64,000 nt of DNA from the NCBI RefSeq assembly GCF_044324785.1, contig NZ_CP172127.1. One strand, written 5' to 3'. The position numbers and the translations under genes are program-made. Under the pieces are notes generated by a model. It was not told the DNA's origin and ran no database searches. It saw nothing but the letters and a program-made list of their open reading frames with translations. This DNA comes from Escherichia coli (lineage in GTDB: Bacteria; Pseudomonadota; Gammaproteobacteria; Enterobacterales; Enterobacteriaceae). Below are positions 4,797 to 46,652 of this stretch, in pieces. Position 1 is the first letter of the stretch. Each line of letters opens with the position of its first letter.

Positions 4797-5962
<1,166 letters not shown>

Positions 5963-6083
5963 TTGACCATTATTACAGACCGGACCATCTTAATATCCGG
6001 TCAGTATATAGACTATTTTTTACACGCCGGAAGTCACCATTAACCCCCTTCCGGCCCTTGCCAGACGGCACAAAGGATGCGCT

Positions 6084-10567: not shown

Positions 10568-10955
10568 TTAATCTGCTGTTCCCTACAGATAATACGCGTT
10601 TAAAACGCCGGGGGGTTTTTATCTCGGGTGAAGCTGGGATCTGCGTAGAAGTACCGCTATTGTATGCCTGCGTTGCGCCAGCAAAACGATAGCGTACTTT
10701 CAGGCGTTCCAGCGTTTCGACAATCACCGCTGAAGAGCCTCCGGGAGCCGCTGGCATTACCTTGCCTGTAATACCGTTCCGCCGTGCTTTGGTATACACG
10801 CCATAACCAACCTTCAACAGTTGCCCTTCCCTGACAAGATCGCGCAATACCCGACCAACCTGATCGTAGCCTGCAATATCTTTAAAGTCGTCACGAGTGA
10901 ATACGTAACGTTTAGAACGTTTCAGTCGTGACTGAATGCGTGCTTTTATCGTCAT
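10560..10955 (-). CDS. AbiEi-like antitoxin / winged-helix regulator (short form, ~131 aa)
   Basis: Start chosen at the ATG preceded by AGGAGG (MTIKARIQ...); the ORF-track start at 11024 abuts the upstream gene and lacks a ribosome-binding site. Basic N-terminus; translationally coupled to the toxin. Confidence 0.55.
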   Translation of the reverse strand: MTIKARIQSRLKRSKRYVFTRDDFKDIAGYDQVGRVLRDLVREGQLLKVGYGVYTKARRNGITGKVMPAAPGGSSAVIVETLERLKVRYRFAGATQAYNSGTSTQIPASPEIKTPRRFKRVLSVGNSRLNG

Positions 10956-11017
10956 ATTCGCCTCCTGAGTCATTGCATAAAGAGTAGCAAAAATACGACA
11001 TTTTAGATAGCAAACAT

Positions 11018-11885
11018 ACGACATTCATTTTGCTGATAACGCTGACGGAAAGTGCTTCGCCACGATATCATTCATCTTATCCACCAGATCCAGCCGCTTG
11101 AATGTGATATGCCCACTGCCCTTCTGAAAGTAGCGAATAGTGAACAACTCATCTTCGAAAATCTGCTGATGCGGATTATCGCGCACAAAATCCATAAACC
11201 GGATGGAGACATCATGCCGGTTATCGGGAATGGTCTTCCCATCCAGCAGGTAGAACATCCGTTCCAGATCGGCAAGCTGATCTCGCCGCCAGCCCCAGTT
11301 CAGGCTGTAGCCCCATCTGTCATGCTTCACCAGATTGTTAACGATAATCTTCTTACCGAAATAACAGGGATTATTGGTTTTGTAGTCCCAGCTCAATCCC
11401 TTAAATACATTGATAACCCCACGTTCGAAAACGTCCTGCTTATTGTGGTGGAGTTGTTCAAAGGTACTCAGGATGTTGGCTTCGCTAATCGCCGGGAGAT
11501 CGCCCTCCTCCAGGTTCTTTGCCCACTGACTGCGGGCTTCGGCATCCATCAGAGTCAACATCCCGGACTTCAGCATGAGATCGCGCCAGATGCTGCGATC
11601 GATATTGCGGGTGATCGCCGACATCGCTTTGTCGGTTGGTTGCATCAACCAGCAGTCAAAGGCATATCCATTACGCATTCCCCAGGTTCCAGCCACATCA
11701 CCGCCAATACTGGATGTCAGACTGGAGATATCATGAAGTTTTTGGATTAACGTCGCTATCTGGTTCAGTGCACTATCACGACCCGTCACGATACGTTCAA
11801 TGCTGGTCGAGCAAATTAGTTCGTTATGATCGGTTAAGACTTCAGCTTCTGTTTGCATAATCTTTTGTCCGTATAAAAGCAAATG
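11018..11885. repeat. Copy B of the ~865-bp direct repeat (see 2078..2945)
   Basis: Manual alignment, ~95% identity. Confidence 0.85.
11025..11858 (-). CDS. Conserved island-associated hypothetical protein (277 aa from MQTEAEV), paralog of 2100..2933
   Basis: Start set at the ATG corresponding to the start of copy A; the ORF track extends 8 codons further upstream. Confidence 0.6.
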   Translation of the reverse strand: MQTEAEVLTDHNELICSTSIERIVTGRDSALNQIATLIQKLHDISSLTSSIGGDVAGTWGMRNGYAFDCWLMQPTDKAMSAITRNIDRSIWRDLMLKSGMLTLMDAEARSQWAKNLEEGDLPAISEANILSTFEQLHHNKQDVFERGVINVFKGLSWDYKTNNPCYFGKKIIVNNLVKHDRWGYSLNWGWRRDQLADLERMFYLLDGKTIPDNRHDVSIRFMDFVRDNPHQQIFEDELFTIRYFQKGSGHITFKRLDLVDKMNDIVAKHFPSALSAK

Positions 11886-11972
11886 CGCCAGCCATGAACA
11901 GCAGGCGCATTATGCAGGGAGTTATGAGGGAAGTAATTTTGGCGATGTAAATCGGGAAGGAGACTCGCAGAT

Positions 11973-12314
11973 TCACCGTACCGTGGTGTTATGGCAGCGG
12001 CGCAGCAGACCTGTAGCCTGCCGCGCCCGTAAAATATCGACCGCACGAAGATAAGGCGTCTGTTCCTGCCAGCTAAATCCTTTCCTGTCGATACGGATCA
12101 ATTCGTACTTCTCCACCAAAAAATTGATGGCATCGACCAGAGTGATTCCGGCATCTATGTGTTCCTGAATCACCTTTTCATTGTTGAATGGTGTGTCATT
12201 AAGATTCAGCCCGTAGTGCTGCTCCAGCAGGCGGGCCAGTAATATTTGCCAGACCACGACGGGCGACAGATATGACGTCGTCGCCCGCAGCGTCGTTGCA
12301 GGAATAATTTTCAT
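11973..12314 (-). CDS. CbtA/YeeV/YkfI-family toxin (type IV toxin-antitoxin; cytoskeleton-targeting toxin family)
   Basis: 113 aa; strong recalled similarity to YeeV ([21 protein letters not shown]...IQEHIDAGI...VNFLVEKY...[11 protein letters not shown]). Confidence 0.8.
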
Positions 12315-12344
12315 AACGATGTTCCGTATTAAGGAGGTTAAAAC

Positions 12345-12680
12345 TCAGCGTTGAGTGGGATAAATAGCGATATAGACGTAACCACAGGAACCCAGCGTAT
12401 CGGCTTCGCAGGTTAGTCCTTTGGCGTATAGCGTGACGGTACGTTGTTGGCAGGGGGAGAGTTCACCGTCAGCCAGTTTCAGCTCCAGTTGTTTCATCAG
12501 CACCGGAAAAGCCTGGTCGATATGCAGCAGATCCGGGGAGCTGAATTTCCCGGTGATTGCGGCCCGATCAGCTAGGTAATGCAGGTTATGTCTTTCCTGT
12601 ACCAGTCGAGCAGTGAAGCGTGGTGTTACGGTACAGGGAAGCCCCCATTCTTGTTGCATGACCTTGTCCTTTTGCAGCAT
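12345..12680 (-). CDS. CbeA/YeeU/YafW-family antitoxin
   Basis: 111 aa; recalled similarity to YeeU (WGLPCTVTP-F-ARLVQE...LHYLADRA...LMKQLEL...TVTLYAKGLTC-ADTLGSCGYVY); directly upstream of the toxin. Confidence 0.8.
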   Translation of the reverse strand: MLQKDKVMQQEWGLPCTVTPRFTARLVQERHNLHYLADRAAITGKFSSPDLLHIDQAFPVLMKQLELKLADGELSPCQQRTVTLYAKGLTCEADTLGSCGYVYIAIYPTQR

Positions 12681-13153
12681 TACAGCCAGCCCCGTTCGGC
12701 AAAAGAGAGGACATCCCCCGCCCCAATAATGAAATGATCCAGCACCCTCACTTTCACCAAATCCAGTGTCTTAACAATATTCGTTGTAATAAGTCTGTCG
12801 GCCCGACTGGGTTTCGTCACGCCGGAGGGATGGTTATGCGCAAGGATCACTGCTGCGGCATTGTGCCGTAGCGCAGATTTCACAATCTCACGGGGATGTA
12901 CTTCTGTGCTGTTAATCGTGCCGAGAAATAGCGTTTCGTGTTCCAGCAGTCGGTTCTGGTTATCGAGGTAGAGCACAACAAACATTTCCCGCTCCTGTCG
13001 TGCCAGATGCAGTTGCAGCCAGGTTTTTGTGGAGTCAGAGGAAAGAAAAGATTCGCCAGGATTGCGTTGATATTTCTCCAGCAGACGCATCGCACGGCGG
13101 ATAGCGCGTTGTTCACTCACCGAAAATACCGGTGTTAGCATCAGTTCAGACAT
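12680..13153 (-). CDS. RadC-like JAB/MPN-domain protein (YeeS/YkfG/YfjY family)
   Basis: 157 aa with the JAMM-like motif HNHPSG; stop overlaps the antitoxin start by 1 nt, typical of CP4-like islands. Confidence 0.8.
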   Translation of the reverse strand: MSELMLTPVFSVSEQRAIRRAMRLLEKYQRNPGESFLSSDSTKTWLQLHLARQEREMFVVLYLDNQNRLLEHETLFLGTINSTEVHPREIVKSALRHNAAAVILAHNHPSGVTKPSRADRLITTNIVKTLDLVKVRVLDHFIIGAGDVLSFAERGWL

Positions 13154-13182
13154 CGTATTTCCTTTACTATTAATAGCGTTGT

Positions 13183-14001
13183 TTATGAGGCCAGTTGCAA
13201 CATGTTTTCAGCCATCACCCACAGGGCGCGGTTGAGCCTGACATCACCGTCGATGCCTTTAATGGCGCGGGTGTGCGTGCGACCACCTTTTGCCGTGCGC
13301 CCGTTTAAACCACCTTTGATCAGGTTCTCCTGAATACGCTGGTAGGTCGTCCACAGATCGCCGGATTCATCCTGCCAGCGGCGGGGAGCCAGCAACTGGG
13401 ATTCCGTCACTGGCTGGTGCTCTTCGCCAAAGCGGTACGTCAGCGCCGCCTTTGCCAGCGCCTGTTGCGCAGGGGGTGGCAGCATCAGCGACTGCATGGC
13501 ATCGCGTTTCTCTTCAACCTGGTCAAAAACACTGAGGACTTCATAAGCGCCTTCAATCACTTTCTCCACCACATTGCCTTTATGCGGTACCCGTACTTCA
13601 CCAAACGACTCGCCGCAGACCAGTCCGTTACAACAAACAGATCGGAACAGCCCTGGCAGCATCTGATATGAACTGGAACCGTCATGGCTGTTGAGAAGAA
13701 TAATTTCCGGCACCTGGTTGCGATTGATCTGGTCTTCCCGGCGCAGACGCAGCATGTGTTTTGTATGCTCACGTTTACCCACATCACGAACGCGGGTCTG
13801 GCAGGCAAAGAAAGGATGAAATCCTTCACGCTGGAGGTTATCGAGCAGAGTAATGGTGGGAATATAGGTATAGCGTTCGCTGCGTGATTCGTGCTTATTT
13901 TCCCCAAATACGCTGGGGACATACTGCATCAGTTCGTCATGAGTTAATGGGCGATCGCGACGGATTTGATTTACGTGACCAAAGCGGCTGGCTAATTTCA
14001 T
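13183..14001 (-). CDS. CP4-like island conserved protein (272 aa; tentatively DUF932/YfjQ-YafZ-like)
   Basis: Size and position in a CP4-57/CP4-6-like gene block; family assignment is from memory and unverified. Confidence 0.45.
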   Translation of the reverse strand: MKLASRFGHVNQIRRDRPLTHDELMQYVPSVFGENKHESRSERYTYIPTITLLDNLQREGFHPFFACQTRVRDVGKREHTKHMLRLRREDQINRNQVPEIILLNSHDGSSSYQMLPGLFRSVCCNGLVCGESFGEVRVPHKGNVVEKVIEGAYEVLSVFDQVEEKRDAMQSLMLPPPAQQALAKAALTYRFGEEHQPVTESQLLAPRRWQDESGDLWTTYQRIQENLIKGGLNGRTAKGGRTHTRAIKGIDGDVRLNRALWVMAENMLQLAS

Positions 14002-14187
14002 GGTGAATTCCTTAATAAAGAATATAAAAAACAGGCCGCATCTTCTGAAAAATTGCGGCTAATTTAATGCGTGATTAAAACGGACGGTAGTATAGGTGGG
14101 ATAAAATAACAGGTACGTGCAGATATTAAATTACATTCCGGCAGTGAATATATGAAAGTGATATAGTGCTGAAATAATACATATCTG

Positions 14188-14218
14188 AATTCTCCCGGTG
14201 ATAGTCACCGGGAGAATT
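14188..14218. terminator. Perfect 14-bp-arm palindrome (AATTCTCCCGGTGA-TAG-TCACCGGGAGAATT) downstream of the 284-aa gene
   Basis: Read directly; lies 19 bp after the stop of 14237..15091 on the minus strand; weak U-tract. Confidence 0.45.
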
Positions 14219-14236
14219 TAAGTTTGAAATGACACC

Positions 14237-15091
14237 TCAACCACGGGATAATCTTGTTTCTATTCCCTGAACTCTTTCGTCTATTAACCTTTCAATAACA
14301 GATATTTTATCTGACTTGTAAAATTTAACCAGAAAATCCAGACGCTCTTTATGCGTATCACTGATAGACTCCCTTTCCCGTTTTTCAGAAAGTTTACGTC
14401 TGAAGTTTTTTTGGTAAAACGCTTTATTTATTTTCTTTACCGCTTTCTGCTGGAGGTCATCATCCGCTGACCATAAATCCAGCATGGCATAAACGGCGTG
14501 ATAGGTTTCTACACTATTCAGTGGTTCCGGGATTTGAACGGGGTCTAAATGGTTTCCTGTATTACTACCGTGCTCTTTCTGGAATTTATTAATGTAATTA
14601 TAAGCCCATATACAGACTTCGTCATTATCCTCATTAAGCCAGCGTAATTTTATTCTCTGATGTTCATTTGCCCTCCAGAATACAAGCCTCTCATATAGCC
14701 ACTGTCTCATCAACGGTGCCTGATTAGTCTCAATATTAATATAGTCCAGTAATGCAACGATGATTGAGTATCTTTCGCTATGACTTGCAGGAGAATCTGT
14801 TATTCCGGCTTTCTGATACCAGTTAATGTTTAAATTTGTGCCCAGCTTTTCGTTAATTGACTCCATACAGCGGTAATCAAGACACATCACGCCCCATAGC
14901 CAGAACGTCGCTCTTTCATTTTCTTTTAACCAACTAAAATATTTCTCCGGCAGAAGCATCGTATTAATCGACAGCTCCAGTGAGCGAATAAAATTACTTC
15001 GCTGAATGGGATCGGGATACCCGACCTCGAGGGCTGTATTAATAATTCTCTCCGAAAGGAGATGTATCTGGATTGTTCCCGTCAAACGCAA
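14237..15091 (-). CDS. Hypothetical protein (284 aa), AT-rich, no recognisable motifs
   Basis: ORF-track start is TTG (GGGAG lies 11 nt upstream); the first in-frame ATG is at codon 45, so the true start is uncertain. Preceded by a ~690-bp ORF-free AT-rich region. Confidence 0.45.
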   Translation of the reverse strand: MRLTGTIQIHLLSERIINTALEVGYPDPIQRSNFIRSLELSINTMLLPEKYFSWLKENERATFWLWGVMCLDYRCMESINEKLGTNLNINWYQKAGITDSPASHSERYSIIVALLDYINIETNQAPLMRQWLYERLVFWRANEHQRIKLRWLNEDNDEVCIWAYNYINKFQKEHGSNTGNHLDPVQIPEPLNSVETYHAVYAMLDLWSADDDLQQKAVKKINKAFYQKNFRRKLSEKRERESISDTHKERLDFLVKFYKSDKISVIERLIDERVQGIETRLSRG

Positions 15092-15783
15092 ATTGATTTG
15101 CTCCCTGAATGTTTTTCCTGATGTACCAGAAAAGAAACCTGCTGGTTCGGATGTCCTTCACTGCTATTGATGAGCGCACATTAACGGCCATTGTTCTACC
15201 TCGTCATCCTTGTTAAATCAGCAAAAAGCAATAGCGTAATTATGACGTGTTTTTGAAGTAAAACCGTAGCAATAAATCAATAAAAGTGGGAAATGCGTAG
15301 TAATATCGTGTTATTCCATAGTAATAGAGTACCATTAACGTAGTTTTTTATTTATCACCATACTCACAGCTTCCGCCCGTAGAAAACGGCTGGATAGTCT
15401 TAAATTTTTCCACGTATAGCCCTGGTGGCTTTACGGGTGAAACCTCCCAGGATAACGAGTTGACATCTGGAAGATGTCATTCATGACCGCAACTCATAGA
15501 TTAGATCAATGTATTAATTATAACTTAAGAGTGAAATCCTTTATCTTCAGGAACAGATAATTAACTACGAACACCAGTAAATACCGGGCTTCTACTCTTT
15601 TTATCACCCTTTCTTTATGAATCAACATTGCCGGTATTAATATTATGTTTATCACTCATTCATTAGATTCAGCATATAGAGGGATGACACCAGAGACAGG
15701 GAAAAGTAATCCAGATCGGCATAGCTCAGTGAAAAGTTACTACAGCACTTATGGATATGTAACCAACCACAAGGAACTGAAGC

Positions 15784-16398
15784 ATGAAACTGAATGAACG
15801 ATATGGCAAGCCTAATGCACACTATATGAAACGTCTGGAAGAGATTACTCGCTATGCGATGGATGATTACGCCAGAATACTGGCTTTCAGAGTGGATTTA
15901 TTACTGCCAGTGGATAATAGCCATAAAGGGTATGACTCAGCGGTTATTACCCGTTTTATAGCCTCACTGAAAGCACAGATAGCCGCATATTTACAACGGC
16001 GCAGGAGAGACGGTAAACGTGTTTACCCCTGTAAGCTGCGATATGCATGGGTAAGAGAATTTGGTGAACTGAATGGCAACAAGCATTATCACATGCTGTT
16101 GTTGGTTAATCGGGAAGTATTCAGGAATACCATGCTGAATACGGAGAATTCAGCGCAACCTCGCGGATTGCTGGTGGGAATGGTAGCGCGAGCATGGGCT
16201 GTGGCGCTTAGACGTACCGAAGATATGGCAAATAAAGTCCCCTTTCATTTACCAGGCGTCTCTTATGAACTGGATCGCAGAAATGGCACAAATACGGACT
16301 TTTTCCGCAGCTACATATACCACATCAGTTATCTGGCGAAGGAGTACACCAAAAACCACGATGACGGTGAACGTAACTTTGGTTGTAGTCAGGGATAA
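15784..16398 (+). CDS. YagK/YfjJ-family protein (inovirus Gp2-like domain)
   Basis: 204 aa; recalled similarity to CP4-57 YfjJ / CP4-6 YagK; conserved HYHMLLL motif. Confidence 0.65.
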   Translation: MKLNERYGKPNAHYMKRLEEITRYAMDDYARILAFRVDLLLPVDNSHKGYDSAVITRFIASLKAQIAAYLQRRRRDGKRVYPCKLRYAWVREFGELNGNKHYHMLLLVNREVFRNTMLNTENSAQPRGLLVGMVARAWAVALRRTEDMANKVPFHLPGVSYELDRRNGTNTDFFRSYIYHISYLAKEYTKNHDDGERNFGCSQG

Positions 16399-16515
16399 GT
16401 AATTTATTACCGGAGAAGTGATTGTAATGGCGGAGTATGCAACATCATCTTAAATTAATGGGTTAGTGTTGCTGCTCCTGTCTTTTATCAACGTAAAGAC
16501 AGAAGGACAATCGTC

Positions 16516-16734
16516 ATGAAAAATCAACCGAATACCGATACTGACCTGATGAATGACAAACTGGTGACGATGGCATTTATTACCACGTTTACTGGCCTGA
16601 CTGACAAATGGTTTTATAAACTGATTAGTGAAGGCAAGTTTCCAAAGCCTGTCAAGCTGGGGCGTAGTTCCCGCTGGCGGGAAAGTGAAGTTAAACGCTG
16701 GCTGACGGAACGTATTGCAGAATCCCGCAATTAA
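16516..16734 (+). CDS. alpA: AlpA-family phage regulatory protein (small HTH DNA-binding protein)
   Basis: 72 aa; AGAAGGA ribosome-binding site; typical AlpA size and a C-terminal SRWRESEVKRWL motif. Confidence 0.7.
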   Translation: MKNQPNTDTDLMNDKLVTMAFITTFTGLTDKWFYKLISEGKFPKPVKLGRSSRWRESEVKRWLTERIAESRN

Positions 16735-16953
16735 TCTCCCTGACACTCTCTCTACACGCCTTCCCCGTAAGCATTAATCAGCACAAATGCTATATCAATA
16801 AGCGTCTGACAGGGCCGTTGCTGTGCATCTATCGACGCGTAACTTCATTATACCCGGATGAAATACGTTTCGTTTAACGTTGTCGAAAAATAATTAACCG
16901 GAGAATAGCCTGCTTATTTAGCAGGAATTCCCCGGATACAGCCACAGATAAAA

Positions 16954-17739
16954 TTAGGAATTAAATGTCCAGCTACCCGTATCGGTCACAATGTCAGCTT
17001 CAATGATACGGTCACACTTCATATATTTGAACGTAGCCACATCACCGAATTTATATTTAGCTGGCAGGGTTCTGTTACCGGCGCTCTCCATTTTACAGTT
17101 CCCTCTGTTTACCCGAATGGATTTCAGCACCACGTTGTCATCAGTGATAGTGAGCTGAATAACACCATATTTGGTATTCCAGCCTTCATTACTGACGGAG
17201 CTGCCGAACTGAACTTTAAATGGTGATGTCGTAGGTTGCTGTGCCTGCTGTTGTTGAGAGGGAGCAGGTTTATTTGCCTGCTGGCTACCAACGCTATTAA
17301 TGCCATTCTGAAGGAGGCTTCTGGAAACCTTAATGGTACCCGGCTTGCATGATACTGTGCTGGTTTCCTGCCCCATTGCATTCATGACAGTGTAATAAGC
17401 ATCACCTGTACCATCATATTCTGAGTAATTGACTGCAACCGCGCCTTCGATATCTTCATTTTCTCCACGTAATGTGAAAGAAGCGGTTCCTGCTCCCGGA
17501 TTAGCCGCCAGAGTCTGTTTCGCTTCGCCGGAAGGAATATCCAGTTTAATAACAGAGCCGCTCTCTTCGGAGTCACCGCCAGGATTTTCAAAACTGATAT
17601 AAACGGTATTGCTGACGTGGCTGAGTGTCATTTGCTCACCGTTATCAAGCAGACATTGCAGGTCATAGGCCCCGACAGCATAAGCAGGGTGGAATGCAAA
17701 TAAAGATACAAACAATACAGGTATAATGATTGGTTTCAT
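16954..17739 (-). CDS. Secreted/periplasmic hypothetical protein with signal peptide and Gln/Pro-rich linker
   Basis: N-terminus MKPIIIPVLFVSLFAFHPAYA-VGAY fits a Sec signal peptide with AYA cleavage site; two predicted domains separated by SQQANKPAPSQQQQAQQPTT; 12 bp downstream of the GTPase gene on the same strand. Confidence 0.6.
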   Translation of the reverse strand: MKPIIIPVLFVSLFAFHPAYAVGAYDLQCLLDNGEQMTLSHVSNTVYISFENPGGDSEESGSVIKLDIPSGEAKQTLAANPGAGTASFTLRGENEDIEGAVAVNYSEYDGTGDAYYTVMNAMGQETSTVSCKPGTIKVSRSLLQNGINSVGSQQANKPAPSQQQQAQQPTTSPFKVQFGSSVSNEGWNTKYGVIQLTITDDNVVLKSIRVNRGNCKMESAGNRTLPAKYKFGDVATFKYMKCDRIIEADIVTDTGSWTFNS

Positions 17740-17751
17740 TAAGCACTTTCC

Positions 17752-18765
17752 CTATCCAAAAAAATGGTCCCAGGCATTACCAGCCCACTCGATAAGTTTG
17801 TCTTTCCCCTTTCGGGTAAGCTCTTTGACAGGCTTTGGTAACGGAAAAGAATCAATAACGTCGTCGAGTATCCCGGAGATTACGCTGCCAAAGCCGTTTT
17901 TTGCTTCCGTCTTTACTTCGTCGGTTTTGAACTCATCCTTAACCTGCGAAGCCGTGCTACTTTTAGCCCGATCAGGCAAAGCCCGAATAATAGTCTCTAC
18001 CAGACGAAGAATGTTGTAGCCCTCATCGGCGGAGACAGGTGTCACCGGATAGTGCGTAAAACCAAATCGTTCAGTAATGTAGGCTTCTTTCTTTTCGATG
18101 TTGATGCGCTGTGCAGGAGATGGCTGATGCAGATGAGTATCCCACTCGCGGAATGGCTCAATTTTATCAACCTGGTTAAGGACGAATAAAACGCGCTCAC
18201 CCCCACCAGCAGGGAGCAGAACATTGTTGTAGAAATGCTCATCCGCAGAAAAGGCCCGATCGTCTCCTTTTATTACCCACAGGATGAGATCCAGGGAGGG
18301 AAGCAAATTACGGTATAAATCTTCATACTCCTTATCCCGCCGGGCATTCTCACCGACACCAGGTATATCAATGATCTTCAGCGAGTGTTTGCCGAAGCGT
18401 ATACGCAATTCCTGAACTTCACGAGTACATGCCTCAACGTCGCTAACTGCACAAACCTCCCCTTTAAACAACGCATTACATACACTACTTTTCCCCGCGC
18501 CTGTTTTTCCCATGACACCAATTACGGGTTCATAGTCGATGGCTTCACTGATTTTGTTCAACAGCTTTTCCCGCAGTGGCTGAGGGAAAATATCAAGAAT
18601 ATCCCTGATGTCAGGTATGTGCGGCTTGCTATCACCTTTTTGCTCGTTGCTACCATTACGTTCTGGAAATATATTGCTCCACATTCCCAAAATCCCGCCT
18701 TCCCTTCTGGTGACGCCACTGGCATCAGTAATCATCCGGCCTTCGCCCTTTACCGGGTCATCCAT
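17752..18765 (-). CDS. YeeP/YkfA/YfjP-family GTPase (50S ribosome-binding GTPase domain)
   Basis: 337 aa; P-loop GVMGKTGAGKSS, DxxG-type switch II IIDIPGVGE, and NQVD (NKxD) motif; AAGGAG ribosome-binding site 9 nt upstream of the ATG. Confidence 0.8.
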   Translation of the reverse strand: MDDPVKGEGRMITDASGVTRREGGILGMWSNIFPERNGSNEQKGDSKPHIPDIRDILDIFPQPLREKLLNKISEAIDYEPVIGVMGKTGAGKSSVCNALFKGEVCAVSDVEACTREVQELRIRFGKHSLKIIDIPGVGENARRDKEYEDLYRNLLPSLDLILWVIKGDDRAFSADEHFYNNVLLPAGGGERVLFVLNQVDKIEPFREWDTHLHQPSPAQRINIEKKEAYITERFGFTHYPVTPVSADEGYNILRLVETIIRALPDRAKSSTASQVKDEFKTDEVKTEAKNGFGSVISGILDDVIDSFPLPKPVKELTRKGKDKLIEWAGNAWDHFFG

Positions 18766-18803
18766 ACGATGTCTCCTTTTTAATTTGAAATGAACGTTGT
18801 CTG

Positions 18804-19520
18804 TTACTCTCTGAAGGTCTGAATTACGTCACTTATGAAACGAAAGTGAGGGAGGGCTGAAATGAACTCTTCACTGGCAGTCAGAGCATCAAGTTCAGGC
18901 TTTCTGCGAAAAGAGGTATCCAGAACGGTTACGGCATTAACGTCTTCCATCCGAAACACCTGTAAATTTCTGGTGCGGGTAGCAACAAGAAACCAGTTTT
19001 TGGATTGAAATATCAAACGGCGGGGAGCTACTGCTTCGTAGCTTTTACCGTTAACTAATAATGTAACGGCGCGGTAGTCGCGGATAGCTTCCGCCAGTTC
19101 CAGAAAACAGGCGGTTTGTGTAACTGGAGATGGCAGCCCTCCATGCCCTATAAGGCACGGCGAGCTTCCGGAGTTACTGGTAATCAGTCGAATTAACCTG
19201 CGATTCTGAGCCGGAATAATCCCTGAAATCCCGGAATTACGGATAAACGCAAAGGTGTTGGGTGAGTGCTCCCAGCCCGTTCGGCGGATAAGTCGGTAGC
19301 TTCCGCTGGAATGCTCGAGATCCAGATGGATCAGGCGTTGCTGAAAATCCCGCTGTAGGGTGCGTTCTGAGACACCAAATTCATCAGCTAATACTTTAAG
19401 CTCCAGAGATTCACCAGCCAGTAAGCGGCTGATAATGACTGATAGCCTGACAGACAGGCGGTCATGATGATCATGCTGTGTTTTCATGGTGGGGACAGTC
19501 CTGTTCTCCCAAAATATCAT
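18804..19520 (-). CDS. YfjR-like transcriptional regulator (HTH plus WYL-like domain)
   Basis: N-terminal HTH region (LKVLADEFGVSERTLQRDF); the ORF track begins at a TTG at 19574 and in-frame ATGs lie at 19520 and 19487, so the start is uncertain. Confidence 0.55.
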   Translation of the reverse strand: MIFWENRTVPTMKTQHDHHDRLSVRLSVIISRLLAGESLELKVLADEFGVSERTLQRDFQQRLIHLDLEHSSGSYRLIRRTGWEHSPNTFAFIRNSGISGIIPAQNRRLIRLITSNSGSSPCLIGHGGLPSPVTQTACFLELAEAIRDYRAVTLLVNGKSYEAVAPRRLIFQSKNWFLVATRTRNLQVFRMEDVNAVTVLDTSFRRKPELDALTASEEFISALPHFRFISDVIQTFRE

Positions 19521-20062
19521 GGTATTGATACGGGAGATTATGCCGTACAGGTACGACACGTTATGTCGTACCAAAGGGGAGTGGATAGAAAAAATGGCGA
19601 AGATGCGAAAAGTTTATTAATGCATTGAAAAAGATGAATTAATAATGAACTTGGGTAAAAGCGCCATCAAAATACGACACGACCTGTCGTATTTTGTGTT
19701 AGCCGGGAAAGGATATCTGCTACTTACTAAAATGATTTAGTGCTGAAAATATTTGTAAGCCAATAAATAGACCGGTATTACGGAGTAACGCCCAGGCTAT
19801 GTTAACGAGCCCGCTGTTTTATTGGCTCAAAAAACATATCCCAGAGATGATCAGCCATACCCTCGTTAGTGAGCAAGGTATCCCTTGAGTAGCCATGGCT
19901 GAAGACGCCCATTGATGGGCGAAAACCAAGGTTCTGGCCGTTAGAACAGTTATGTCGTTAAACACATCACCACCATATGCCATCCGGCTCACTTCGTCGG
20001 CCAAATTAGTGTGATATTCTTTTCAGAATTCCTGTTGTATCCACAACATAAGGCGATGATTG

Positions 20063-23000
20063 ATGGAACAGTCTCTCAATTTTGAAATGTTGCGCAGCCA
20101 GTGGCCGGAACTGGCTGAACTCGCGTGTATGGCGGAACGCTATGTTCACTCCGATCCGGAAAGCTGCCTGGTTAAGCTGCGCAACTACACCGAATTGATG
20201 GTGCGCTGGTTGTATCGTCAGGAGCGGTTGCCGGAAGGTATTAAGGCTAATCTTTACGATTTAATGAATGCTGATGTCTTTACCAGCATGATGCCGGAAG
20301 CCATCATCATGAAAATGGATGCGCTGCGTATCCATGGCAACCGTGCCGCGCACGGCGGACGTATCAAAGCTAAAGATACCTACTGGCTGCTCAAAGAAGC
20401 GTATTTGTTGGGAATTTGGCTGTATGTTCGCTACGCCCACGGTAATGTTGATGACTGCCCCAAATTTACACTCCCTCCATTAACACAATCTTCAGGTCGT
20501 GCAGATGAAAAACGTCTGGAAGATGCAATCAAGGCTCAGGATGAAAGCCGTGAGCGCGAACTGGCGCTACAACGCGCACTACAGCAAGAACAGGAAAAGG
20601 CCGAACACCTCACTCAACGCCTGAATGAAGCCAGAGCGCGTAACCAGCATGTTGCCGATATTCTCTCTATTGATGAAGCTGAAACCCGCCGTCGCCTGAT
20701 TGACTCTCGCCTGCTTGCTGCTGACTGGAATGTAGGCGAAGAACTTAAAAATACCGATCAGGTTACACAGGAACATCCAGTTAAAGAACAGCCTACCGCT
20801 ACCGGTGACGGTTATGCGGACTATGTCTTGTGGGATGAGGCACACAAACCGCTGGCGGTGGTGGAAGCAAAAAAAACCAGCGTCAATGCCGAGCAAGGAC
20901 GAATTCAGGCCCGGCTGTATGCAGACTGGCTGGAAAAAGAATACGGTCAGCGTCCGGTCATCTTCTACACCAACGGTTACGATATCTGGCTGTGGGATGA
21001 CCATAAAACTCATGGTTATCCCCCGCGTCGGGTGTTTGGCTTCTACAGCAAGGAAAGCCTGCAATATCTTATTCAGCAGCGTGAAACCCGTCTACCGCTG
21101 AACAGTGTGCCGCACGTAAAAGACAACGAAGGTAAGGCCGTTGCCGGACGTTTGTACCAGCTTGAAACCATTGCCCGCGTTAGCGAACGGTTTACCAATA
21201 AATATCGTCAGTCATTAATCGTTCAGGCCACCGGCACCGGTAAAACCCGTGTAGCGATTGCACTGAGCAAACTGATGATTGATGCCCGCTGGGTAAAACG
21301 AGTCCTGTTTCTTTGCGACCGCAAGGAACTACGTAAACAGGCGGCGAATGCCTTTAATCAATTCACCAATGAGCCGCTGTATGTGGTCGGGAAATCGAAG
21401 AAAGCAGACAGGCAGAATGCCAGGATCTACATCGCCACCTATCCTGGTATGATGAAAATCATGGACCATTTCGATGTCGGTTATTTCGATTTGATCATCG
21501 CCGATGAATCCCACCGCTCTATCTACAACGTCTACGGCGATCTGTTTAAGTATTTTGATGCCCTCCAGATTGGCCTGACGGCCACGCCGATTGACATGGT
21601 GAGTAAAACCACTTTCGGCCTTTTTGGTTGTGAAGGACGTATTCCTACCGCCAACTACAGCCTGGAAGATGCCATCGCCGATAACAATCTGGTTCCCTAT
21701 GAGGTTGTCACACACACCACAGAATTCCTGCGCGAAGGCATCAAACGGGAGAAATTAAGCGACGCACAAATCCGCGAGCTGGAAGAACAAGGTATAGATC
21801 CCAATACGCTGGAGTTTGATGGCAAGGCGCTGGATGAGGCGATCTACAACAAAGACACCAACCGCTATATCCTGCGTAACCTGATGGAAAATGGCCTGAA
21901 AGATCGGGACGGCCAGTTGCCAGGTAAAACCATCATTTTCGCCCGTAACCACAAACACGCGCTGCTGTTGAATGAATTGTTCGACGATATGTATCCGCAG
22001 TTTGCCGGACGCTTCTGCCAGGTCATCGACAACTACGATCCCCGCGCCGAGCAACTGATTGATGATTTTAAAGGGCTGGATGAAAGCACCAACAAAGAGC
22101 TGACCATCGCTATCTCTGTTGACATGCTCGATACCGGTATTGATGTCCCGGAGATTGTGAATCTGGTCTTTGCCAAACCGGTCAAATCAAAAGTGAAGTT
22201 CTGGCAGATGATTGGCCGTGGTACGCGCCTCTGTCCGGGGTTGTACGGTTACGACGATAACGGCAAACCGCTGGATAAACAGAAATTCCGCATTTTCGAT
22301 CACTGGGGCAATTTTGAGTATCACGAGCTGCATGCCGAAGAGGCCGAAGTCACAGCGACAAAATCGCTTGCACAAAAACGCTTCGAAGCGTGGGTTATGC
22401 TGGGGGCCGCTGCGCAACGTAAATTCGACAAACAGGCGGTGGATTTAGTTGCTCACCAGCTTCGCGAGCAAATCAACGCACTGGATGAAAAGTCGATTGC
22501 CGTACAGGAAAAGTGGCAGCAAAAAGCGCAGTACAGTGATGAAAAGGTGCTGCGCCAGCTTTCTCCGAAAACACAGCAGGATCTGCTATCTATTCTAGCC
22601 CCGCTGATGCAGTGGCTGGACGTGCGCGGGCAAAGCGATGCCATACGCTTTGATATGGATATTCTGGCGGCGCAAACTGCCCGTTATACCAACCCGGAAG
22701 AGCTGGATGTGCTCTGGCCGGCCATCGTCGAAAAAGTGGAGCGCCTGCCGCCGCATTTGGCGCAGGTGCAGCAACAGGGACAACGAATCAATCAGCTTCG
22801 TGATCTAGGCTGGTGGAAGCAGGCCAGTCTGGAAGAGCTGGAGGATATCCGCATTCATTTGCGCGGTATCATGCACCTGATGGAAAAAGACACGACGCCG
22901 AAATTTGGTTCGATACAGGTGGATATTACCGAAGATGCGAACCTGATCCAGACGGAGACCCGCAAAACCAACATCCGTTCGATTGATTTCAAACTCTATC

Positions 23001-23476
23001 GCCAGCAGGTTCAGGGGGCGCTGGAGCCGCTGTTCCAGCAAAATCCGGTGCTGAAGAAAATCCGCAACGGCGAGCCAGTCACGCAAAACGAGCTTGATGA
23101 ACTGGCGAAGCTGGTGCTGATCCAGAACCCCAACGTTGATATCCGGGCACTGAAAGAGTTCTATCCGCAGGCAACCGCCAGCCTGGATAAACTTTTGCGT
23201 ACCATCATCGGGATGGACAGCGACGCGGTGGAAGTGCGCTTTGCTCAGTTCGCCGCTGATAACAGTCTAACCAGCCAACAACTGCGCTTCCTGTCATTGC
23301 TGAAAAACCACATTCGCGATTACGGCACCATTGAAATGCGGCAGCTCTTTGAACAGCCTTTTACGCATATCCACAACGAAGGCGTTACCGGTGTGTTCCC
23401 TGATATAGAGCAGATCGCCCGCCTGCAAAAGATAGTCGAAGAGCTGGGTGTTGTGACCGACGCAGCGACGGTATAA
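20063..23476 (+). CDS. hsdR: Type I restriction enzyme HsdR subunit (second type I system; family not assigned)
   Basis: ~1137 aa; motifs GYADYVLW...LAVVEAKK, Walker A QATGTGKTR and DEAH-like IIADESHRS; first ATG at 20063 (ORF track begins at an upstream TTG). Confidence 0.9.
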   Translation: MEQSLNFEMLRSQWPELAELACMAERYVHSDPESCLVKLRNYTELMVRWLYRQERLPEGIKANLYDLMNADVFTSMMPEAIIMKMDALRIHGNRAAHGGRIKAKDTYWLLKEAYLLGIWLYVRYAHGNVDDCPKFTLPPLTQSSGRADEKRLEDAIKAQDESRERELALQRALQQEQEKAEHLTQRLNEARARNQHVADILSIDEAETRRRLIDSRLLAADWNVGEELKNTDQVTQEHPVKEQPTATGDGYADYVLWDEAHKPLAVVEAKKTSVNAEQGRIQARLYADWLEKEYGQRPVIFYTNGYDIWLWDDHKTHGYPPRRVFGFYSKESLQYLIQQRETRLPLNSVPHVKDNEGKAVAGRLYQLETIARVSERFTNKYRQSLIVQATGTGKTRVAIALSKLMIDARWVKRVLFLCDRKELRKQAANAFNQFTNEPLYVVGKSKKADRQNARIYIATYPGMMKIMDHFDVGYFDLIIADESHRSIYNVYGDLFKYFDALQIGLTATPIDMVSKTTFGLFGCEGRIPTANYSLEDAIADNNLVPYEVVTHTTEFLREGIKREKLSDAQIRELEEQGIDPNTLEFDGKALDEAIYNKDTNRYILRNLMENGLKDRDGQLPGKTIIFARNHKHALLLNELFDDMYPQFAGRFCQVIDNYDPRAEQLIDDFKGLDESTNKELTIAISVDMLDTGIDVPEIVNLVFAKPVKSKVKFWQMIGRGTRLCPGLYGYDDNGKPLDKQKFRIFDHWGNFEYHELHAEEAEVTATKSLAQKRFEAWVMLGAAAQRKFDKQAVDLVAHQLREQINALDEKSIAVQEKWQQKAQYSDEKVLRQLSPKTQQDLLSILAPLMQWLDVRGQSDAIRFDMDILAAQTARYTNPEELDVLWPAIVEKVERLPPHLAQVQQQGQRINQLRDLGWWKQASLEELEDIRIHLRGIMHLMEKDTTPKFGSIQVDITEDANLIQTETRKTNIRSIDFKLYRQQVQGALEPLFQQNPVLKKIRNGEPVTQNELDELAKLVLIQNPNVDIRALKEFYPQATASLDKLLRTIIGMDSDAVEVRFAQFAADNSLTSQQLRFLSLLKNHIRDYGTIEMRQLFEQPFTHIHNEGVTGVFPDIEQIARLQKIVEELGVVTDAATV

Positions 23477-23490
23477 TACGCACATGACAA

Positions 23491-23516
23491 GCCCCGGCAG
23501 CGGGGCTTTTGTATTT
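23491..23516 (+). terminator. Rho-independent terminator between hsdR and hsdM
   Basis: GC hairpin GCCCCG-GCAG-CGGGGC followed by TTTTGTATTT, 15 bp after the hsdR stop. Confidence 0.7.
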
Positions 23517-23539
23517 AAAACAGGATATAAAAGCTAACA

Positions 23540-25174
23540 ATGATCACTGGTGACTTAAAAAGTAAAATCGACGGCCTGTGGGAAGATTTCTGGGTGGGTG
23601 GTATCACCAACCCGCTGACCGTAATCGAACAGATCACCTACCTGATGTACTCCCGGATGCTGGATACCCAGGAACAACGCGACGAGAAGCGTAAACAAAT
23701 CGCGGGTATTGATTTTAAACCGCGTTTTGCGCCAGAACAGCAGGAGTTCCGTTTCAGTCACTATAGCAACCTTGGCTCGGATGAGATGATGGAAGTGGTG
23801 CGCGATGGCGTATTCCAGCATTTTCGTCAGCTCGGCCTGGCTGATACATCAAAGGTGACGCTGCTGGGCAACTTTATGAAAGATGCCCGTCTGGAGATTG
23901 TTAAGCCGTCATTGCTGACCAAAGCGGTTGAGGTGATCAAAAACCTGCCATTGGATCGCGGCGATACCAAAGGCGACCTTTACGAATACCTGTTAAGCAA
24001 GCTGACCACTGCCGGGATCAACGGCCAGTTCCGCACGCCACGCCACATTATCCGCACGATGGTTGAAATGATGGAGCCGAACCCGGCCCGCGGCGAGATG
24101 ATTTGCGATCCGGCCTGTGGCACCGGTGGTTTTCTGGCAACCAGCTATGAATATCTGCTGGAGAAGTACAGCTCGCTGGAATCCATTCATACTGAGATTG
24201 GCACCAACGAACGTGGCGAGCTGGAAGAGCAAAAAATCTTTACCGGCGATCTGCTGATACCGTGGCGTAACCATGTGGATAACAATATGTTCCACGGTTA
24301 CGACTTTGATACCACAATGCTGCGTATCGCCGCCATGAACCTGATTATGCACGGCGTGGAAGCGCCGGATATTCACTATCAGGACACCATGAGCCAGAGC
24401 TTCAGCACTAACTTCCCTCAGGCAAGTAAAAACGCTTTCAACCTGATTCTGGCGAACCCGCCGTTTACCGGTTCACTGGACGAGGAAGATATCGACTCCA
24501 CGCTGTCGGCAATGGTGAAAACCAAAAAAACTGAACTACTGTTCCTGGCGCGTATTCTGCAAATGCTGAAAGTGGGCGGGCGCAGTGCCACTATCGTGCC
24601 GCAGGGCGTGTTGTTTGGCTCCAGTAAGGCGCACCAGTCACTTCGCAAAACGCTGGTGGAAGATAACCAACTGGAAGCGGTGATCAACCTGCCTTCCGGT
24701 GTATTTAAGCCTTACGCTGGCGTGGCAACGGCTATCCTGATCTTTACCAAAGGCGGTCAGACGGACGAGGTCTGGTTCTACGATCTGCAAAATGATGGCT
24801 ACAGCCTGGATGACAAGCGTAACCCGATTAAAGACAACGACCTGCCGCATCTGCTGGCAAGCTGGAAGCATTACCGTACTTTGCGTGGTTTGCCGGTAGA
24901 TAACTTTATGGGTGAGAAGTTAGCCTCGTTGCTTAAACAGCAGTACCCGGAAGGGATTGATGCTGGCGTTGATTTTAAAGATCGCACTCAGTCGGCGTTC
25001 GTAGTTCCAAAAGAAGATATTGCTGCGCAGAAATACGATCTCTCTATTAATCGTTATAAAGAAGTGGTGTATCAGGCGGAGGAATATGAAGATCCGAAGG
25101 TGATACTGAAACGATTAAAAGATCTGGAAAAAGAGATTCTGGCGGATTTGGATGAGCTGGAGGGGATGCTGTGA
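23540..25174 (+). CDS. hsdM: Type I methyltransferase subunit HsdM (second system)
   Basis: 544 aa; FRTPRHI, AdoMet-binding DPACGTGGF and catalytic NPPF motifs. Confidence 0.9.
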
Positions 25175-26349: not shown

Positions 26350-26370
26350 TCAGGATTATTATTAATAAAA

Positions 26371-27057: not shown

Positions 27058-27097
27058 CTATTGTCCCGCCAATTGTTTTATAATTGGCGGGATGTCA

Positions 27098-35941: not shown

Positions 35942-35944
35942 AAA

Positions 35945-45137: not shown

Positions 45138-46652
<1,515 letters not shown>

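Follow-up and report, generated by a model that had tools for sequence, protein, structure and literature searches.

Which function does a minus-strand block of a WYL-type regulator, a GTPase and a secreted protein serve in the island that carries it? The block lies in a 64,000-nucleotide stretch of the Escherichia coli contig NZ_CP172127.1 (assembly GCF_044324785.1), here called the window. A preliminary description had recognised a YfjR-like HTH/WYL regulator, a YeeP-like GTPase and a signal-peptide protein, separated by gaps of 38 and 12 bp, and had proposed that the third product could be a surface-exclusion or envelope-acting factor. Profiles, BLASTP searches and motifs upheld the three identities, and the ORF table (18804..19574, 17752..18765 and 16954..17739, all on the minus strand) upheld the spacing (gaps at 18766-18803 and 17740-17751). 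The exported protein is called SEC261 in what follows, and the features are collected in Table 1.

The start of the regulator, in contrast, had to be moved. Its reading frame is open up to a TTG at 19574, and of 8 orthologous loci, 5 have CTGG in place of the ATG at 19520 that had been chosen as the start, whereas the ATG at 19487 is invariant in the orthologous loci and is the start used by PGAP. Thus, the coding block spans 16954..19487, and regulatory DNA extends to approximately 19694. Note that PGAP names the regulator orthologue 'WYL domain-containing protein'.

Table 1. Features of the regulator-GTPase-SEC261 block (positions in the window; a dot marks elements without strand)
Feature	Position	Strand	Basis
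YfjR-family HTH/WYL regulator gene, 227 aa	18804..19487	-	homology, profiles, conserved start
YfjP/YeeP/YkfA-family island GTPase gene, 337 aa	17752..18765	-	profiles, motifs, homology
Ribosome-binding site AGGAG	18773..18777	-	read from sequence
SEC261 gene (exported two-domain protein, 261 aa; export predicted)	16954..17739	-	ORF table, alignment, model
Signal peptide, residues 1-21, MKPIIIPVLFVSLFAFHPAYA	17677..17739	-	alignment and heuristic scan
N-terminal beta domain, residues 22-150, invariant C29 and C131	17290..17676	-	alignment, model
Disordered Q/P-rich linker, residues 151-172	17224..17289	-	pLDDT <50 for residues 152-169
C-terminal Ig-like beta-sandwich domain, residues 173-261, motif VNRGNC, invariant C215 and C242	16957..17223	-	
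Distal operator-like palindrome AAATACGACA-GGTCG-TGTCGTATTT	19670..19694	.	~200 bp upstream of ATG
Proximal operator-like palindrome GGTACGACA-TAACG-TGTCGTACC	19550..19572	.	present in 22/22 loci
Candidate -10 hexamer CATAAT	19537..19542	-	invariant in 8 orthologous upstream regions; promoter role inferred
Terminator-like element: 15-bp stem-loop (16898-16935), then U-rich tract	16885..16935	-	folding

The block is more than a chance arrangement. The same three genes, with 11-12 bp between the GTPase and the third gene, were present in all 22 loci with a complete regulator and upstream DNA, and a syntenic block was found in 208 of 5426 E. coli genomes, Nissle 1917 among them, as well as in five other enterobacterial species and in metagenomes. 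Moreover, the 4-kb segment from yfjJ to the promoter of the WYL gene is kept as a unit across genera. Purifying selection acts on all three genes: dN/dS was 0.05 for the regulator, 0.10 for the GTPase and 0.13 for SEC261 in the 7 orthologues analysed, none of which carried stop codons. An Rfam search returned no RNA family within or beside the block, and the viral contigs scanned with the GTPase yielded one partial locus only. The carriers include commensal, uropathogenic and probiotic lineages, the last exemplified by Nissle 1917.

An island of the CP4-57/CP4-44 type, integrated at leuX, houses the block as part of its conserved backbone. The tRNA-Leu(CAA) gene leuX is at 34642-34726, adjoined by a tyrosine integrase gene (33173-34519), and the backbone genes are those for AlpA, YagK_YfjJ_C, DUF932, RadC, CbeA, CbtA and DUF4942; E. 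coli MB07011 and Nissle have the same island layout. The recognisable defence genes are not in the block but in the variable region on the far side of the regulator, where they comprise type I R-M and SIR2 here, TIR and R-M in MB07011 and ABC-3C in Nissle. The idea that the block itself is a defence operon, raised earlier from the class of its regulator, was not borne out, with SEC261 fitting no PADLOC, Pfam or NCBIfam family and the GTPase matching Eleos in its G domain only. The searched text of Zhao et al. (2025, PMC12595487) describes islands with IntY, AlpA, an 'inovirus Gp2-like' gene and RadC that carry defence systems and are transduced by jumbo phages in Pseudomonas, and that of PMC12458937 describes such elements in related terms, with 'moron' modules. 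Our island resembles the former in its tyrosine integrase at a tRNA/tmRNA gene, its alpA, Gp2-like (YfjJ) and RadC genes and its defence cargo; in the searched text of both papers the GTPase, the WYL regulator and the exported-protein slot go unmentioned. No functional study turned up in literature searches for YeeP, YkfA, YfjP, YfjS, YfjT or YafY, nor in searches by Nissle locus tag or protein accession.

Two K-12 islands offer the closest comparison. It had been noted that in CP4-44 the gene after the GTPase encodes the Ag43 autotransporter, and the K-12 record confirms the order yeeP-isrC-flu. In yeeP-isrC-flu(Ag43)-yeeR, as here, genes for exported or membrane proteins come after that of a GTPase of this family, and the island is of the same kind. 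However, Ag43 is a 1039-aa phase-variable autotransporter with the sRNA gene isrC in between, whereas here a 261-aa soluble, predicted periplasmic protein is encoded 12 bp behind the GTPase; in addition, no WYL gene is annotated beside yeeP in K-12. CP4-57 (yfjP-yfjQ-yfjR-ypjK-yfjS-yfjT) has both a homologous GTPase (YfjP, 42% identity by BLASTP) and a homologous regulator (YfjR, 43% identity over 228 residues in a full-length BLASTP match, E=1.6e-56), and after its regulator the same strand encodes small proteins of the envelope, namely one membrane peptide, one lipoprotein and one periplasmic protein. It also shares a GACA-N5-TGTC-type palindrome upstream of the regulator and the backbone genes DUF932, RadC, CbeA/CbtA, AlpA and YfjJ. 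The gene order differs, being regulator, GTPase and exported protein here but GTPase, DUF932, regulator and exported genes in CP4-57. Homology of SEC261 to YpjK, YfjS or YfjT was ruled out by BLASTP and hhalign (probability <5%).

WYL-domain regulators that control defence or stress operons include BrxR, CapW, PafBC and DriD. Our regulator shares with them a probable HTH plus WYL architecture, a location on a defence-laden mobile element and probable autorepression through inverted repeats near the promoter. It differs in that its apparent regulon is its own operon, which comprises the GTPase and the exported protein and no recognised defence system, and, unlike typical HTH-WYL-WCX regulators, it has only 227 residues, with no WCX domain detected by Pfam. 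Both of its Pfam matches are slightly sub-gathering (HTH_11, 19.9 bits with a cut-off of 25; WYL, 20.0 bits with a cut-off of 21.8), and the PADLOC WYL profile PDLC01457 matches residues 40-230 with E=1.3e-16.

Two copies of a palindrome with the consensus CGACA-N5-TGTCG, about 120 bp apart, precede the regulator gene at approximately -81 and -200 in 22 of 22 orthologous loci, with variable spacers. Perfect TACGACA-N5-TGTCGTA sites were found twice, compared to 0.08 expected by chance. The 15-nt core of the proximal copy begins 81 bp upstream of the regulator ATG and overlaps the -35 position of the candidate promoter. The half-sites of the distal copy are kept, with a single mismatch in a few loci, even where the flanks have diverged. 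Moreover, 21 of 36 loci with distant yfjR-like genes have GACA-N5-TGTC at a constant -184/-186 ahead of the gene, where 0.025 occurrences per 250 bp would be expected, and CGGACA-N5-TGTCCG is found upstream of K-12 yfjR. At the level of sequence, these palindromes suggest that the regulator acts on its own operon and not on the cargo. For YfjR, gSELEX gave the yfjR operon as the single target (PMC8249747); at odds with this, ChIP-exo found K-12 YfjR without DNA binding (PMC8464067).

A consensus promoter and terminator scan of the minus strand gave nothing convincing and did not call the hairpin; the promoter and terminator proposed here are based on conservation and folding. The CATAAT candidate has no good -35 hexamer. 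An alternative promoter, TTGATG-N17-CATTAT (19670-19642), was ranked below it because it lies in poorly conserved DNA. At the other end, the terminator-like hairpin (-23.7 kcal/mol, z=-3.4) begins 19 nt past the stop codon of the third gene, and folding revealed no structure in the 38-bp gap between regulator and GTPase. The three genes, framed by the CATAAT site and this hairpin, probably form one autoregulated operon.

What is the protein at the end of this putative operon? SEC261 begins with an n/h/c signal peptide (MK, PIIIPVLFVSLFAF and HPAYA), with cleavage predicted by the AXA rule after A-Y-A and before V. In the family alignment at least 90% of the sequences have Ala at position -1, and the residue at -3 is small; our heuristic scan was also positive, and the features, which include no lipobox, are those of a type I signal peptide, for which export is predicted. 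The predicted model agrees with the two domains described earlier, consisting of two small soluble beta domains joined by a disordered linker (GSQQANKPAPSQQQQAQQPTTS), with an AlphaFold2 pLDDT of 91.9 for the C domain. SEC261 has exactly four Cys, two invariant ones per domain, and C215 and C242 are invariant in a 65-member C-domain alignment; each beta domain is probably held by one disulfide. No SEC261 family was found in Pfam (E<=0.01), NCBIfam or PADLOC, a profile search of PDB sequences (E<=10) gave no match, and SEC261 shows no catalytic signature. A periplasmic lysozyme inhibitor of the MliC/PliC, Ivy or PliG type was considered and rejected, with neither a family profile nor a solved structure matching.

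The only PHROGs match was phrog_36014, of unknown function, to the C domain (residues 169-259, E=5.1e-20). Its members, RisingSun gp79 for example, have about 115 aa and a signal peptide, and the C domain matches nearly the entire profile (positions 26-114 of 115). Homologues of the C domain with signal peptides were found in 10 phage records, of which 9 belong to jumbo phages. Unlike these proteins, SEC261 is island-encoded and carries the C domain fused behind an unrelated N-terminal domain.

Could SEC261 be a surface or colonisation factor that alters the surface, aggregation or biofilm formation for the benefit of host and island, with no role against phages or competitors? Ag43 and YeeR occupy the homologous slot, the yfjR operon has been labelled 'biofilm formation' (PMC8249747), and the block occurs in commensal, uropathogenic and probiotic lineages, all of which would suit this proposal. 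However, SEC261 is no Ag43-like autotransporter, having 261 aa, no Pfam family and two soluble beta domains in the model; it has neither adhesin nor anchor features and resembles a soluble protein of the periplasm that lacks a way to the cell surface. For YfjR, the link to biofilms was not validated (PMC8464067), and colonisation hardly accounts for the homologues in lytic jumbo phages. We consider a surface or colonisation factor of this kind unlikely.

The preliminary description had pointed out that a small periplasmic protein takes the slot that Ag43 has in CP4-44, and this observation generalises. In 90 related loci, signal-peptide proteins made up 116 of 141 unique slot cases (82%) versus 23 of 338 neighbouring genes (7%), as called for the 141 slot proteins by our own heuristic scan rather than SignalP. 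This is an enrichment of about twelve times, with a Fisher p of ~1e-61 that overstates independence because the loci are phylogenetically related. The slot proteins are spread over 16 sequence families and represent at least 10 unrelated families, with no profile similarity between the families, and the genes for GTPase and exported protein remain neighbours over a 43-99% range of GTPase identity. Judged from these comparisons, SEC261 is one of many interchangeable exported-protein cassettes in this slot, which holds Ag43 plus YeeR in CP4-44 and YpjK/YfjS/YfjT in CP4-57.

Its two domains also occur apart. The N domain is found elsewhere as a stand-alone protein of about 150 aa, which in Serratia follows the GTPase; the C domain is found alone, or fused to another N domain, behind GTPases of only 43-61% identity, and is appended after low-complexity linkers to many N-terminal domains. 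By this distribution of its relatives, SEC261 is a fusion of two slot modules. In C. koseri the C domain is preceded by a 139-aa family, which showed no profile similarity to the N domain by hhalign. The C domain has relatives in 412 representative clusters at E<=1e-3; the more distant ones lie on short contigs with mixed neighbours, in uninformative contexts. Pfam scans of multidomain C- or N-domain relatives gave no informative partner, only a sub-threshold VasI motif.

Another possibility is that the SEC261 gene is a mere passenger, an unrelated moron at the 3' end of the operon with no functional tie to it and possibly little current function. In line with this, SEC261 homologues exist without the regulator in E. 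albertii, without the regulator and GTPase in an otherwise near-identical island, and alone in Pseudomonas; thus, SEC261 does not need its neighbours. The highly variable content of the slot would fit as well. Against it stand the purifying selection on SEC261, the 11-12 bp junction strictly kept in every one of the 22 loci, the recurrence of the C domain after divergent GTPases and the conservation of the 4-kb segment across genera, and we regard a passenger as quite unlikely. We find it rather improbable, too, that the slot is an array of acquired immunity genes whose beta domains neutralise T6SS or CDI effectors, colicins or lysozymes in the periplasm. In its favour, the proteins are small, without catalytic motifs and predicted to be periplasmic and disulfide-bonded, and, as in polyimmunity loci, combinatorial domain fusion accompanies the turnover of many unrelated families at a single locus.

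The GTPase itself is intact. Pfam MMR_HSR1 scored 59.4 bits (cut-off 21.9), and the G1-G5 motifs are present (G1 GKTGAGKS, G3 DIPG, G4 NQVD, G5 SA); the Era/EngA-like G domain, whose nearest solved relatives in the PDB are the G domains of Der/EngA and Era, is followed by a conserved C-terminal tail ending in WDxFFG. Homologues form more than 1700 clusters. The ribosome-binding site claimed for this gene is indeed there, 7 nt before its ATG. The G domain resembles that of Eleos (PADLOC LeoBC 8e-12, LeoA 1e-7; Pfam Dynamin_N). Unlike Eleos, however, the GTPase is a single short polypeptide that matches a 560-600-position profile over no more than about 150 residues. Membership in Eleos was rejected: the PADLOC LeoA/LeoBC matches are limited to profile positions 46-197 (of 601) and 43-176 (of 559), within the G domain, NCBIfam DLP_LeoA_gen reaches 15.1 bits with a cut-off of 325, and no second Leo gene lies nearby.

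In ETEC, Leo proteins have been linked to the release of a periplasmic toxin. A GTPase acting likewise at the inner membrane, to promote vesiculation or release of the co-encoded periplasmic proteins, would accord with the Dynamin_N and Leo profile matches, with the persistent adjacency of GTPase and exported genes and with an invariant W..FF tail, a possible motif for docking or for the membrane, but it is highly improbable given that the similarity stops at the G domain and falls far below the LeoA cut-off, that the protein has half the dynamin-like length with no paddle or stalk detected and its nearest solved relatives elsewhere, that SEC261 homologues exist without any GTPase, and that the putative operator separates the GTPase from the exported genes in YfjR-type islands.

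The explanation that we favour, although we would put it a little short of an even chance, is that the block is an autoregulated transcription unit of the island backbone, in which SEC261 serves as an envelope factor for exclusion or protection. The regulator would probably bind the CGACA-N5-TGTCG palindromes and repress its own operon until its WYL domain receives a signal. One transcript would then carry the regulator, the GTPase and, lastly, the Sec-exported SEC261, and would end at the hairpin and U-tract. Two small beta domains with a flexible Q/P linker suggest the architecture of a periplasmic binding or blocking protein. Most likely, SEC261 would bind a periplasmic or outer-membrane target and so change what enters or attacks the cell, and the outcome would be superinfection exclusion or envelope-level protection.

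Envelope-acting superinfection-exclusion 'morons' are known from phages and prophages, namely T4 Sp/Imm, T5 Llp, Cor and P22 SieA. SEC261 is like them a small signal-peptide protein on a mobile element, with phage relatives and a fixed locus of fast-changing content, although we found no sequence or fold relationship to any of them. The envelope-acting or surface-exclusion role proposed earlier is plausible, and the turnover of the cassettes and the jumbo-phage homologues indirectly favour it. In a bolder version, which we consider unlikely as a whole, the GTPase/WYL pair would mark a hypervariable exported-protein locus, an envelope arm of the island's conflict functions so far overlooked next to the cytoplasmic defence cargo. 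Since the C domain is found among phages almost only as a secreted protein of jumbo phages, and jumbo phages transduce such islands in Pseudomonas, it may have a periplasmic role in phage entry or in how island and jumbo helper interact, and an infection-sensing WYL regulator would switch it on. Such a role might consist, for example, in excluding competitors or modulating adsorption.

Islands of this kind are widespread in E. coli and related bacteria and have come to be recognised as vehicles of anti-phage systems. What is new here is a conserved operator-like motif, a slot enriched in exported proteins and an exported domain shared with jumbo phages, which together make a testable system; Nissle 1917, a tractable strain, carries it. 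Should the cassettes be inert, the block is ordinary island backbone. Should they serve exclusion or protection at the envelope, the defence repertoire of these islands would gain a periplasmic layer, and the position of Ag43 would be explained.

The profile matches, the identity to K-12 YfjR and YfjP, the G motifs and the signal peptide with its linker bore out what the preliminary description had said of the three minus-strand genes of the block: a YfjR-like HTH/WYL regulator, a YfjP/YeeP-like GTPase and SEC261, a 261-aa exported protein of two domains. The regulator matches the Pfam HTH_11 and WYL models, both slightly below their gathering scores, and the PADLOC WYL profile strongly (E=1.3e-16); YfjR aligns with it over the whole length at 43% identity (E=1.6e-56). 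The GTPase, preceded by an AGGAG 7 nt 5' of its ATG, matches MMR_HSR1 (Pfam, 59 bits), carries the motifs G1 GKTGAGKS, G3 DIPG, G4 NQVD and G5 SA, and is 42% identical to YfjP; among solved structures, the EngA/Der and Era G domains come nearest to it. Both proteins are new members of known, uncharacterised K-12 families, and SEC261 belongs to unnamed families. The ORF table also returned the expected gaps of 38 bp (regulator/GTPase) and 12 bp (GTPase/SEC261). Note that the end of the block, previously placed at 19520, had to be moved: the ATG there is replaced by CTGG in 5 of 8 orthologous regions, and the regulator starts at the invariant ATG 19487, which is the RefSeq annotated start.

In E. 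coli, Photorhabdus, Xenorhabdus, Citrobacter, Huaxiibacter and one further enterobacterium the orthologues of each of the three genes were free of stop codons, and the median pairwise dN/dS was 0.05 for the regulator, 0.10 for the GTPase and 0.13 for the secreted protein, with dS up to ~1. All three genes are under purifying selection. Of the 5426 complete E. coli genomes, 208 carry the block with 95-99% identical DNA. Nissle 1917 is one of them; its block spans ECOLIN_RS20995-RS21005, and the third gene there is annotated merely as 'hypothetical protein'. Of the genome and metagenome loci with a complete regulator gene and the DNA upstream of it, 22/22 had these three genes in succession, with 11-12 bp separating the GTPase gene from the third.

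Positions of the features considered here
Feature	Sequence	Position	Strand	Remark
Regulator ORF	window	18804..19574	-	ORF table
GTPase ORF	window	17752..18765	-	ORF table
SEC261 ORF	window	16954..17739	-	ORF table
Proximal palindrome TACGACA-N5-TGTCGTA	window	19552-19570		perfect
Distal palindrome TACGACA-N5-TGTCGTA	window	19673-19691		perfect
CATAAT	window	19542-19537
Region scanned for GACA-N5-TGTC	window	19488-19760
Region scanned for GACA-N5-TGTC	locus L019	16488-16703
Conserved backbone	window	9588 to 19943
284-aa ORF	window	14237-15091	-
DUF4942 gene	window	2100-2933
DUF4942 gene	window	11025-11882
Left-hand type I R-M system	window	3240-9200
AbiEii/DUF6088 pair	window	9620-11024
Type I R-M system beside the block	window	20060-26349
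Low-GC stretch	window	25000-31000
228-aa ORF	window	26371-27057		without family
SIR2_2-domain protein	window	27098-30889	-	1263 aa
5'-nucleotidase	window	31039-32004
tRNA-Leu(CAA)	window	34642-34726
Chromosomal flank (ahr, idn genes)	window	35000-39000
Ysr276	window	45699-45893	-	192.6 bits
Magnesium riboswitch	window	63589-63704	-	125.8 bits
N-domain and 241-aa genes	Serratia locus L010	8001-9224
96-aa gene	locus L008	4022-4312
96-aa gene	locus L027	3368-3658
Phage C-domain gene (others exist)	MF459646.1 (locus L020)	2920-3267
Phage C-domain gene (others exist)	LR881104.1 (locus L021)	2833-3258

Upstream of the regulator lie two perfect palindromes, compared to 0.08 expected by chance. Both were present in all 22 loci, their cores beginning ~81 and ~200 bp 5' of the ATG; the half-sites are kept (one mismatch in a few loci), the spacers vary, and in Nissle the distal palindrome is retained although the DNA around it has diverged. 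Directly past the proximal palindrome, a CATAAT and the next 50 bp are invariant in eight taxa. This hexamer may be a -10 element whose -35 position is covered by the operator, and no good -35 hexamer was found for this candidate promoter. We found no RNA structure between the regulator and GTPase genes, and just 3' of the third gene there is a hairpin of 15 bp (-23.7 kcal/mol, z=-3.4) with a U-rich tract behind it. The most economical reading of this anatomy would be a single autorepressed operon.

In 21 of 36 metagenomic loci the shorter motif GACA-N5-TGTC lies at a fixed -184/-186 upstream of a distant yfjR-like gene (background 0.025 per 250 bp); besides these 36, the scan took in the upstream regions in the window and in locus L019. 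K-12 yfjR itself is preceded by CGGACA-N5-TGTCCG. The inverted repeat appears to be a family-wide hallmark 5' of genes for YfjR-like WYL regulators, and is a candidate YfjR operator. By gSELEX, the sole YfjR target is the yfjR operon (PMC8249747), whereas ChIP-exo, at odds with that report, did not see YfjR binding (PMC8464067). The candidate operator could square these conflicting reports.

SEC261 had no family match in Pfam, NCBIfam or PADLOC, and its close family is small: a search of 5.8 billion proteins gave 42 clusters from Enterobacterales and Pseudomonas, none of them named. The signal-peptide and structure prediction that had been proposed for this ORF returned an n/h/c signal sequence of classical type (MK, then PIIIPVLFVSLFAF, then HPAYA with cleavage before V) and, by AlphaFold2, two all-beta domains on either side of a disordered Q/P-rich linker. 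With a deeper alignment, AlphaFold2 gave the C domain as a confident eight-strand Ig-like sandwich (pLDDT 91.9). Since the protein has exactly four cysteines, one invariant pair in the N domain (C29 and C131) and one in the C domain (C215 and C242), the sequence would fit one disulfide per domain in the periplasm.

The N and C domains are separable modules. The N domain also exists as stand-alone proteins of ~150 aa, and in Serratia such a gene lies 3 bp behind a 65%-identical GTPase and is followed by the gene for a 241-aa exported protein. Homologues of the latter are fused N-terminally to the N domain in proteins P0168 and P0170, and this fusion is a second 'Rosetta-stone' link among the modules of the slot, the gene position behind the GTPase/WYL pair in related islands. 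In some stand-alone homologues (proteins P0037, P0039 and P0040 in alignment A1) an LLAC lipobox-like sequence replaces the AXA site, so hosts may differ in having the N domain as a lipoprotein or as a soluble protein. The C domain, with its motif VNRGNC, matches phrog_36014. An exhaustive profile search found it in 412 representative clusters, mostly of 110-125 aa, which is a signal peptide plus the domain; the remainder have tandem copies or carry it C-terminally, behind Q/P/S/T linkers, on various N-terminal domains.

We surveyed the slot in 80 metagenomic loci with the GTPase alignment and in added genome loci. In the commonest class, with GTPases 46-51% identical, the GTPase is followed by a YfjR-like regulator, one to three small proteins and DUF932, an order that mirrors K-12. 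Other classes have, directly behind the GTPase, C-domain proteins of 124-154 aa or, alternatively, a 286-aa protein in which another N domain is fused to the C domain; a DUF4234 membrane protein comes next after some C-domain slot proteins. Counting unique proteins of at least 100 aa, signal peptides were predicted in 116/141 slot proteins but in only 23/338 of the remaining genes at these loci (Fisher p about 1e-61, which overstates independence because the loci are related; the custom heuristic is crude and some ORFs are spurious). Despite these caveats the pattern is clear, and the slot is enriched in exported proteins. The slot proteins form 16 sequence families, mostly exported or membrane, and by hhalign neither SEC261 domain resembled any of the other families. 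As had been stated for CP4-44, Ag43 lies behind the GTPase: the K-12 record gives yeeP, isrC, flu/Ag43 and yeeR. The slot would put Ag43/YeeR (CP4-44), YpjK/YfjS/YfjT (CP4-57) and SEC261 in one frame, and the arrangement of the block is a variant of the CP4-57 module.

SEC261 homologues also occur in other settings: the E. albertii locus has no regulator; an island that is 95% identical elsewhere lacks both regulator and GTPase and has a 96-aa gene of zinc-ribbon/glycine-zipper type upstream of the homologue; and in Pseudomonas mobile regions the homologues stand alone. The conserved 96-aa protein has CxxC...CxxC ends and a glycine-rich hydrophobic core; its gene takes the position of the WYL regulator, 5' of the GTPase in C. 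koseri and 5' of a 47%-identical SEC261 allele in the E. coli-type island lacking regulator and GTPase. In YfjR-type islands an operator-like palindrome lies between the GTPase and regulator genes. What stays fixed there is the regulator with the exported genes; the GTPase is always close by, as a neighbour and at most a putative partner.

A tyrosine integrase adjoins the tRNA-Leu(CAA) gene, followed by variable cargo (HNH endonuclease, 5'-nucleotidase, 1263-aa SIR2-domain protein, type I R-M system). The backbone aligns at 97.8% with another E. coli island and holds the block, a convergent alpA, a YfjJ/'inovirus Gp2' gene, a 284-aa gene, DUF932, RadC, CbeA/CbtA, DUF4942 and an AbiE pair. The cargo beside the regulator is a TIR protein with another type I R-M system in strain MB07011 and an ABC-three-component system in Nissle. 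Because the conserved stretch holds the block and the cargo next to it varies among strains, the block belongs to the backbone of a CP4-57/CP4-44-type island and not to its cargo. A recent paper describes such elements as islands that carry defence systems and have 'moron' modules (PMC12458937).

Several other features of the window were recorded. The SIR2_2 gene, in a segment of 34-37% GC and flanked by the 228-aa ORF and the 5'-nucleotidase, is probably a further defence gene of the cargo region. The two type I R-M systems differ: the left-hand one is an EcoR124-like hsdM-hsdS-hsdR, and the one beside the block is an hsdR-hsdM-hsdS with an EcoEI_R_C domain, its R subunit having an N-terminal DUF4145. 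Since each of the two DUF4942 genes marks the end of a CP4-type backbone, they point to a tandem of two islands or island remnants; the AbiEii/DUF6088 toxin-antitoxin pair separates the backbone from the left-hand R-M system. The 284-aa ORF (317 aa in related records) had no match in Pfam, NCBIfam, PHROG or PADLOC; every E. coli-type island examined has this conserved gene between yfjJ and DUF932. Among 5426 complete E. coli genomes, the best identity was about 97-99% for the island and 98.8% for the chromosomal flank. The DNA probably comes from an Escherichia lineage that has diverged somewhat. Two Rfam matches above gathering score, the antisense sRNA family Ysr276 and a magnesium riboswitch, fall in the chromosomal part and bear no relation to the block.

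The C domain was found in 10 of 50,697 phage records, nine of them jumbo phages of 235-270 kb with Erwinia, Klebsiella/Serratia or Aeromonas as hosts, and a predicted-structure search added Pseudomonas phage EL and others. The phage proteins are small and have signal peptides. A 2025 study in Pseudomonas reported that jumbo phages transduce islands of this general class (PMC12595487), and a connection is possible. In open-access text we found no literature on the operator motif, the exported-protein slot or the jumbo-phage link.

Gene identities, the operon-like anatomy, conserved operator-like sites and phage homologues are matters of observation. We propose that the regulator would keep its own promoter repressed as long as no signal reaches the WYL domain; the derepressed operon would then yield the GTPase together with a disulfide-bonded binding protein exported by Sec, which would act on an envelope component in the periplasm and so alter entry or attack by phages or other invaders. 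The operon and export part is likely, and a periplasmic, envelope-acting role no more than plausible; taken whole, the autorepressed operon with an exported envelope-acting protein is a tentative explanation that falls a little short of probable. SEC261 could instead be a surface or colonisation factor or a periplasmic immunity protein, there could be release driven by the GTPase, or the gene could be a mere passenger. The block gives a sound lead, open to experiment, on a type of element that is common.
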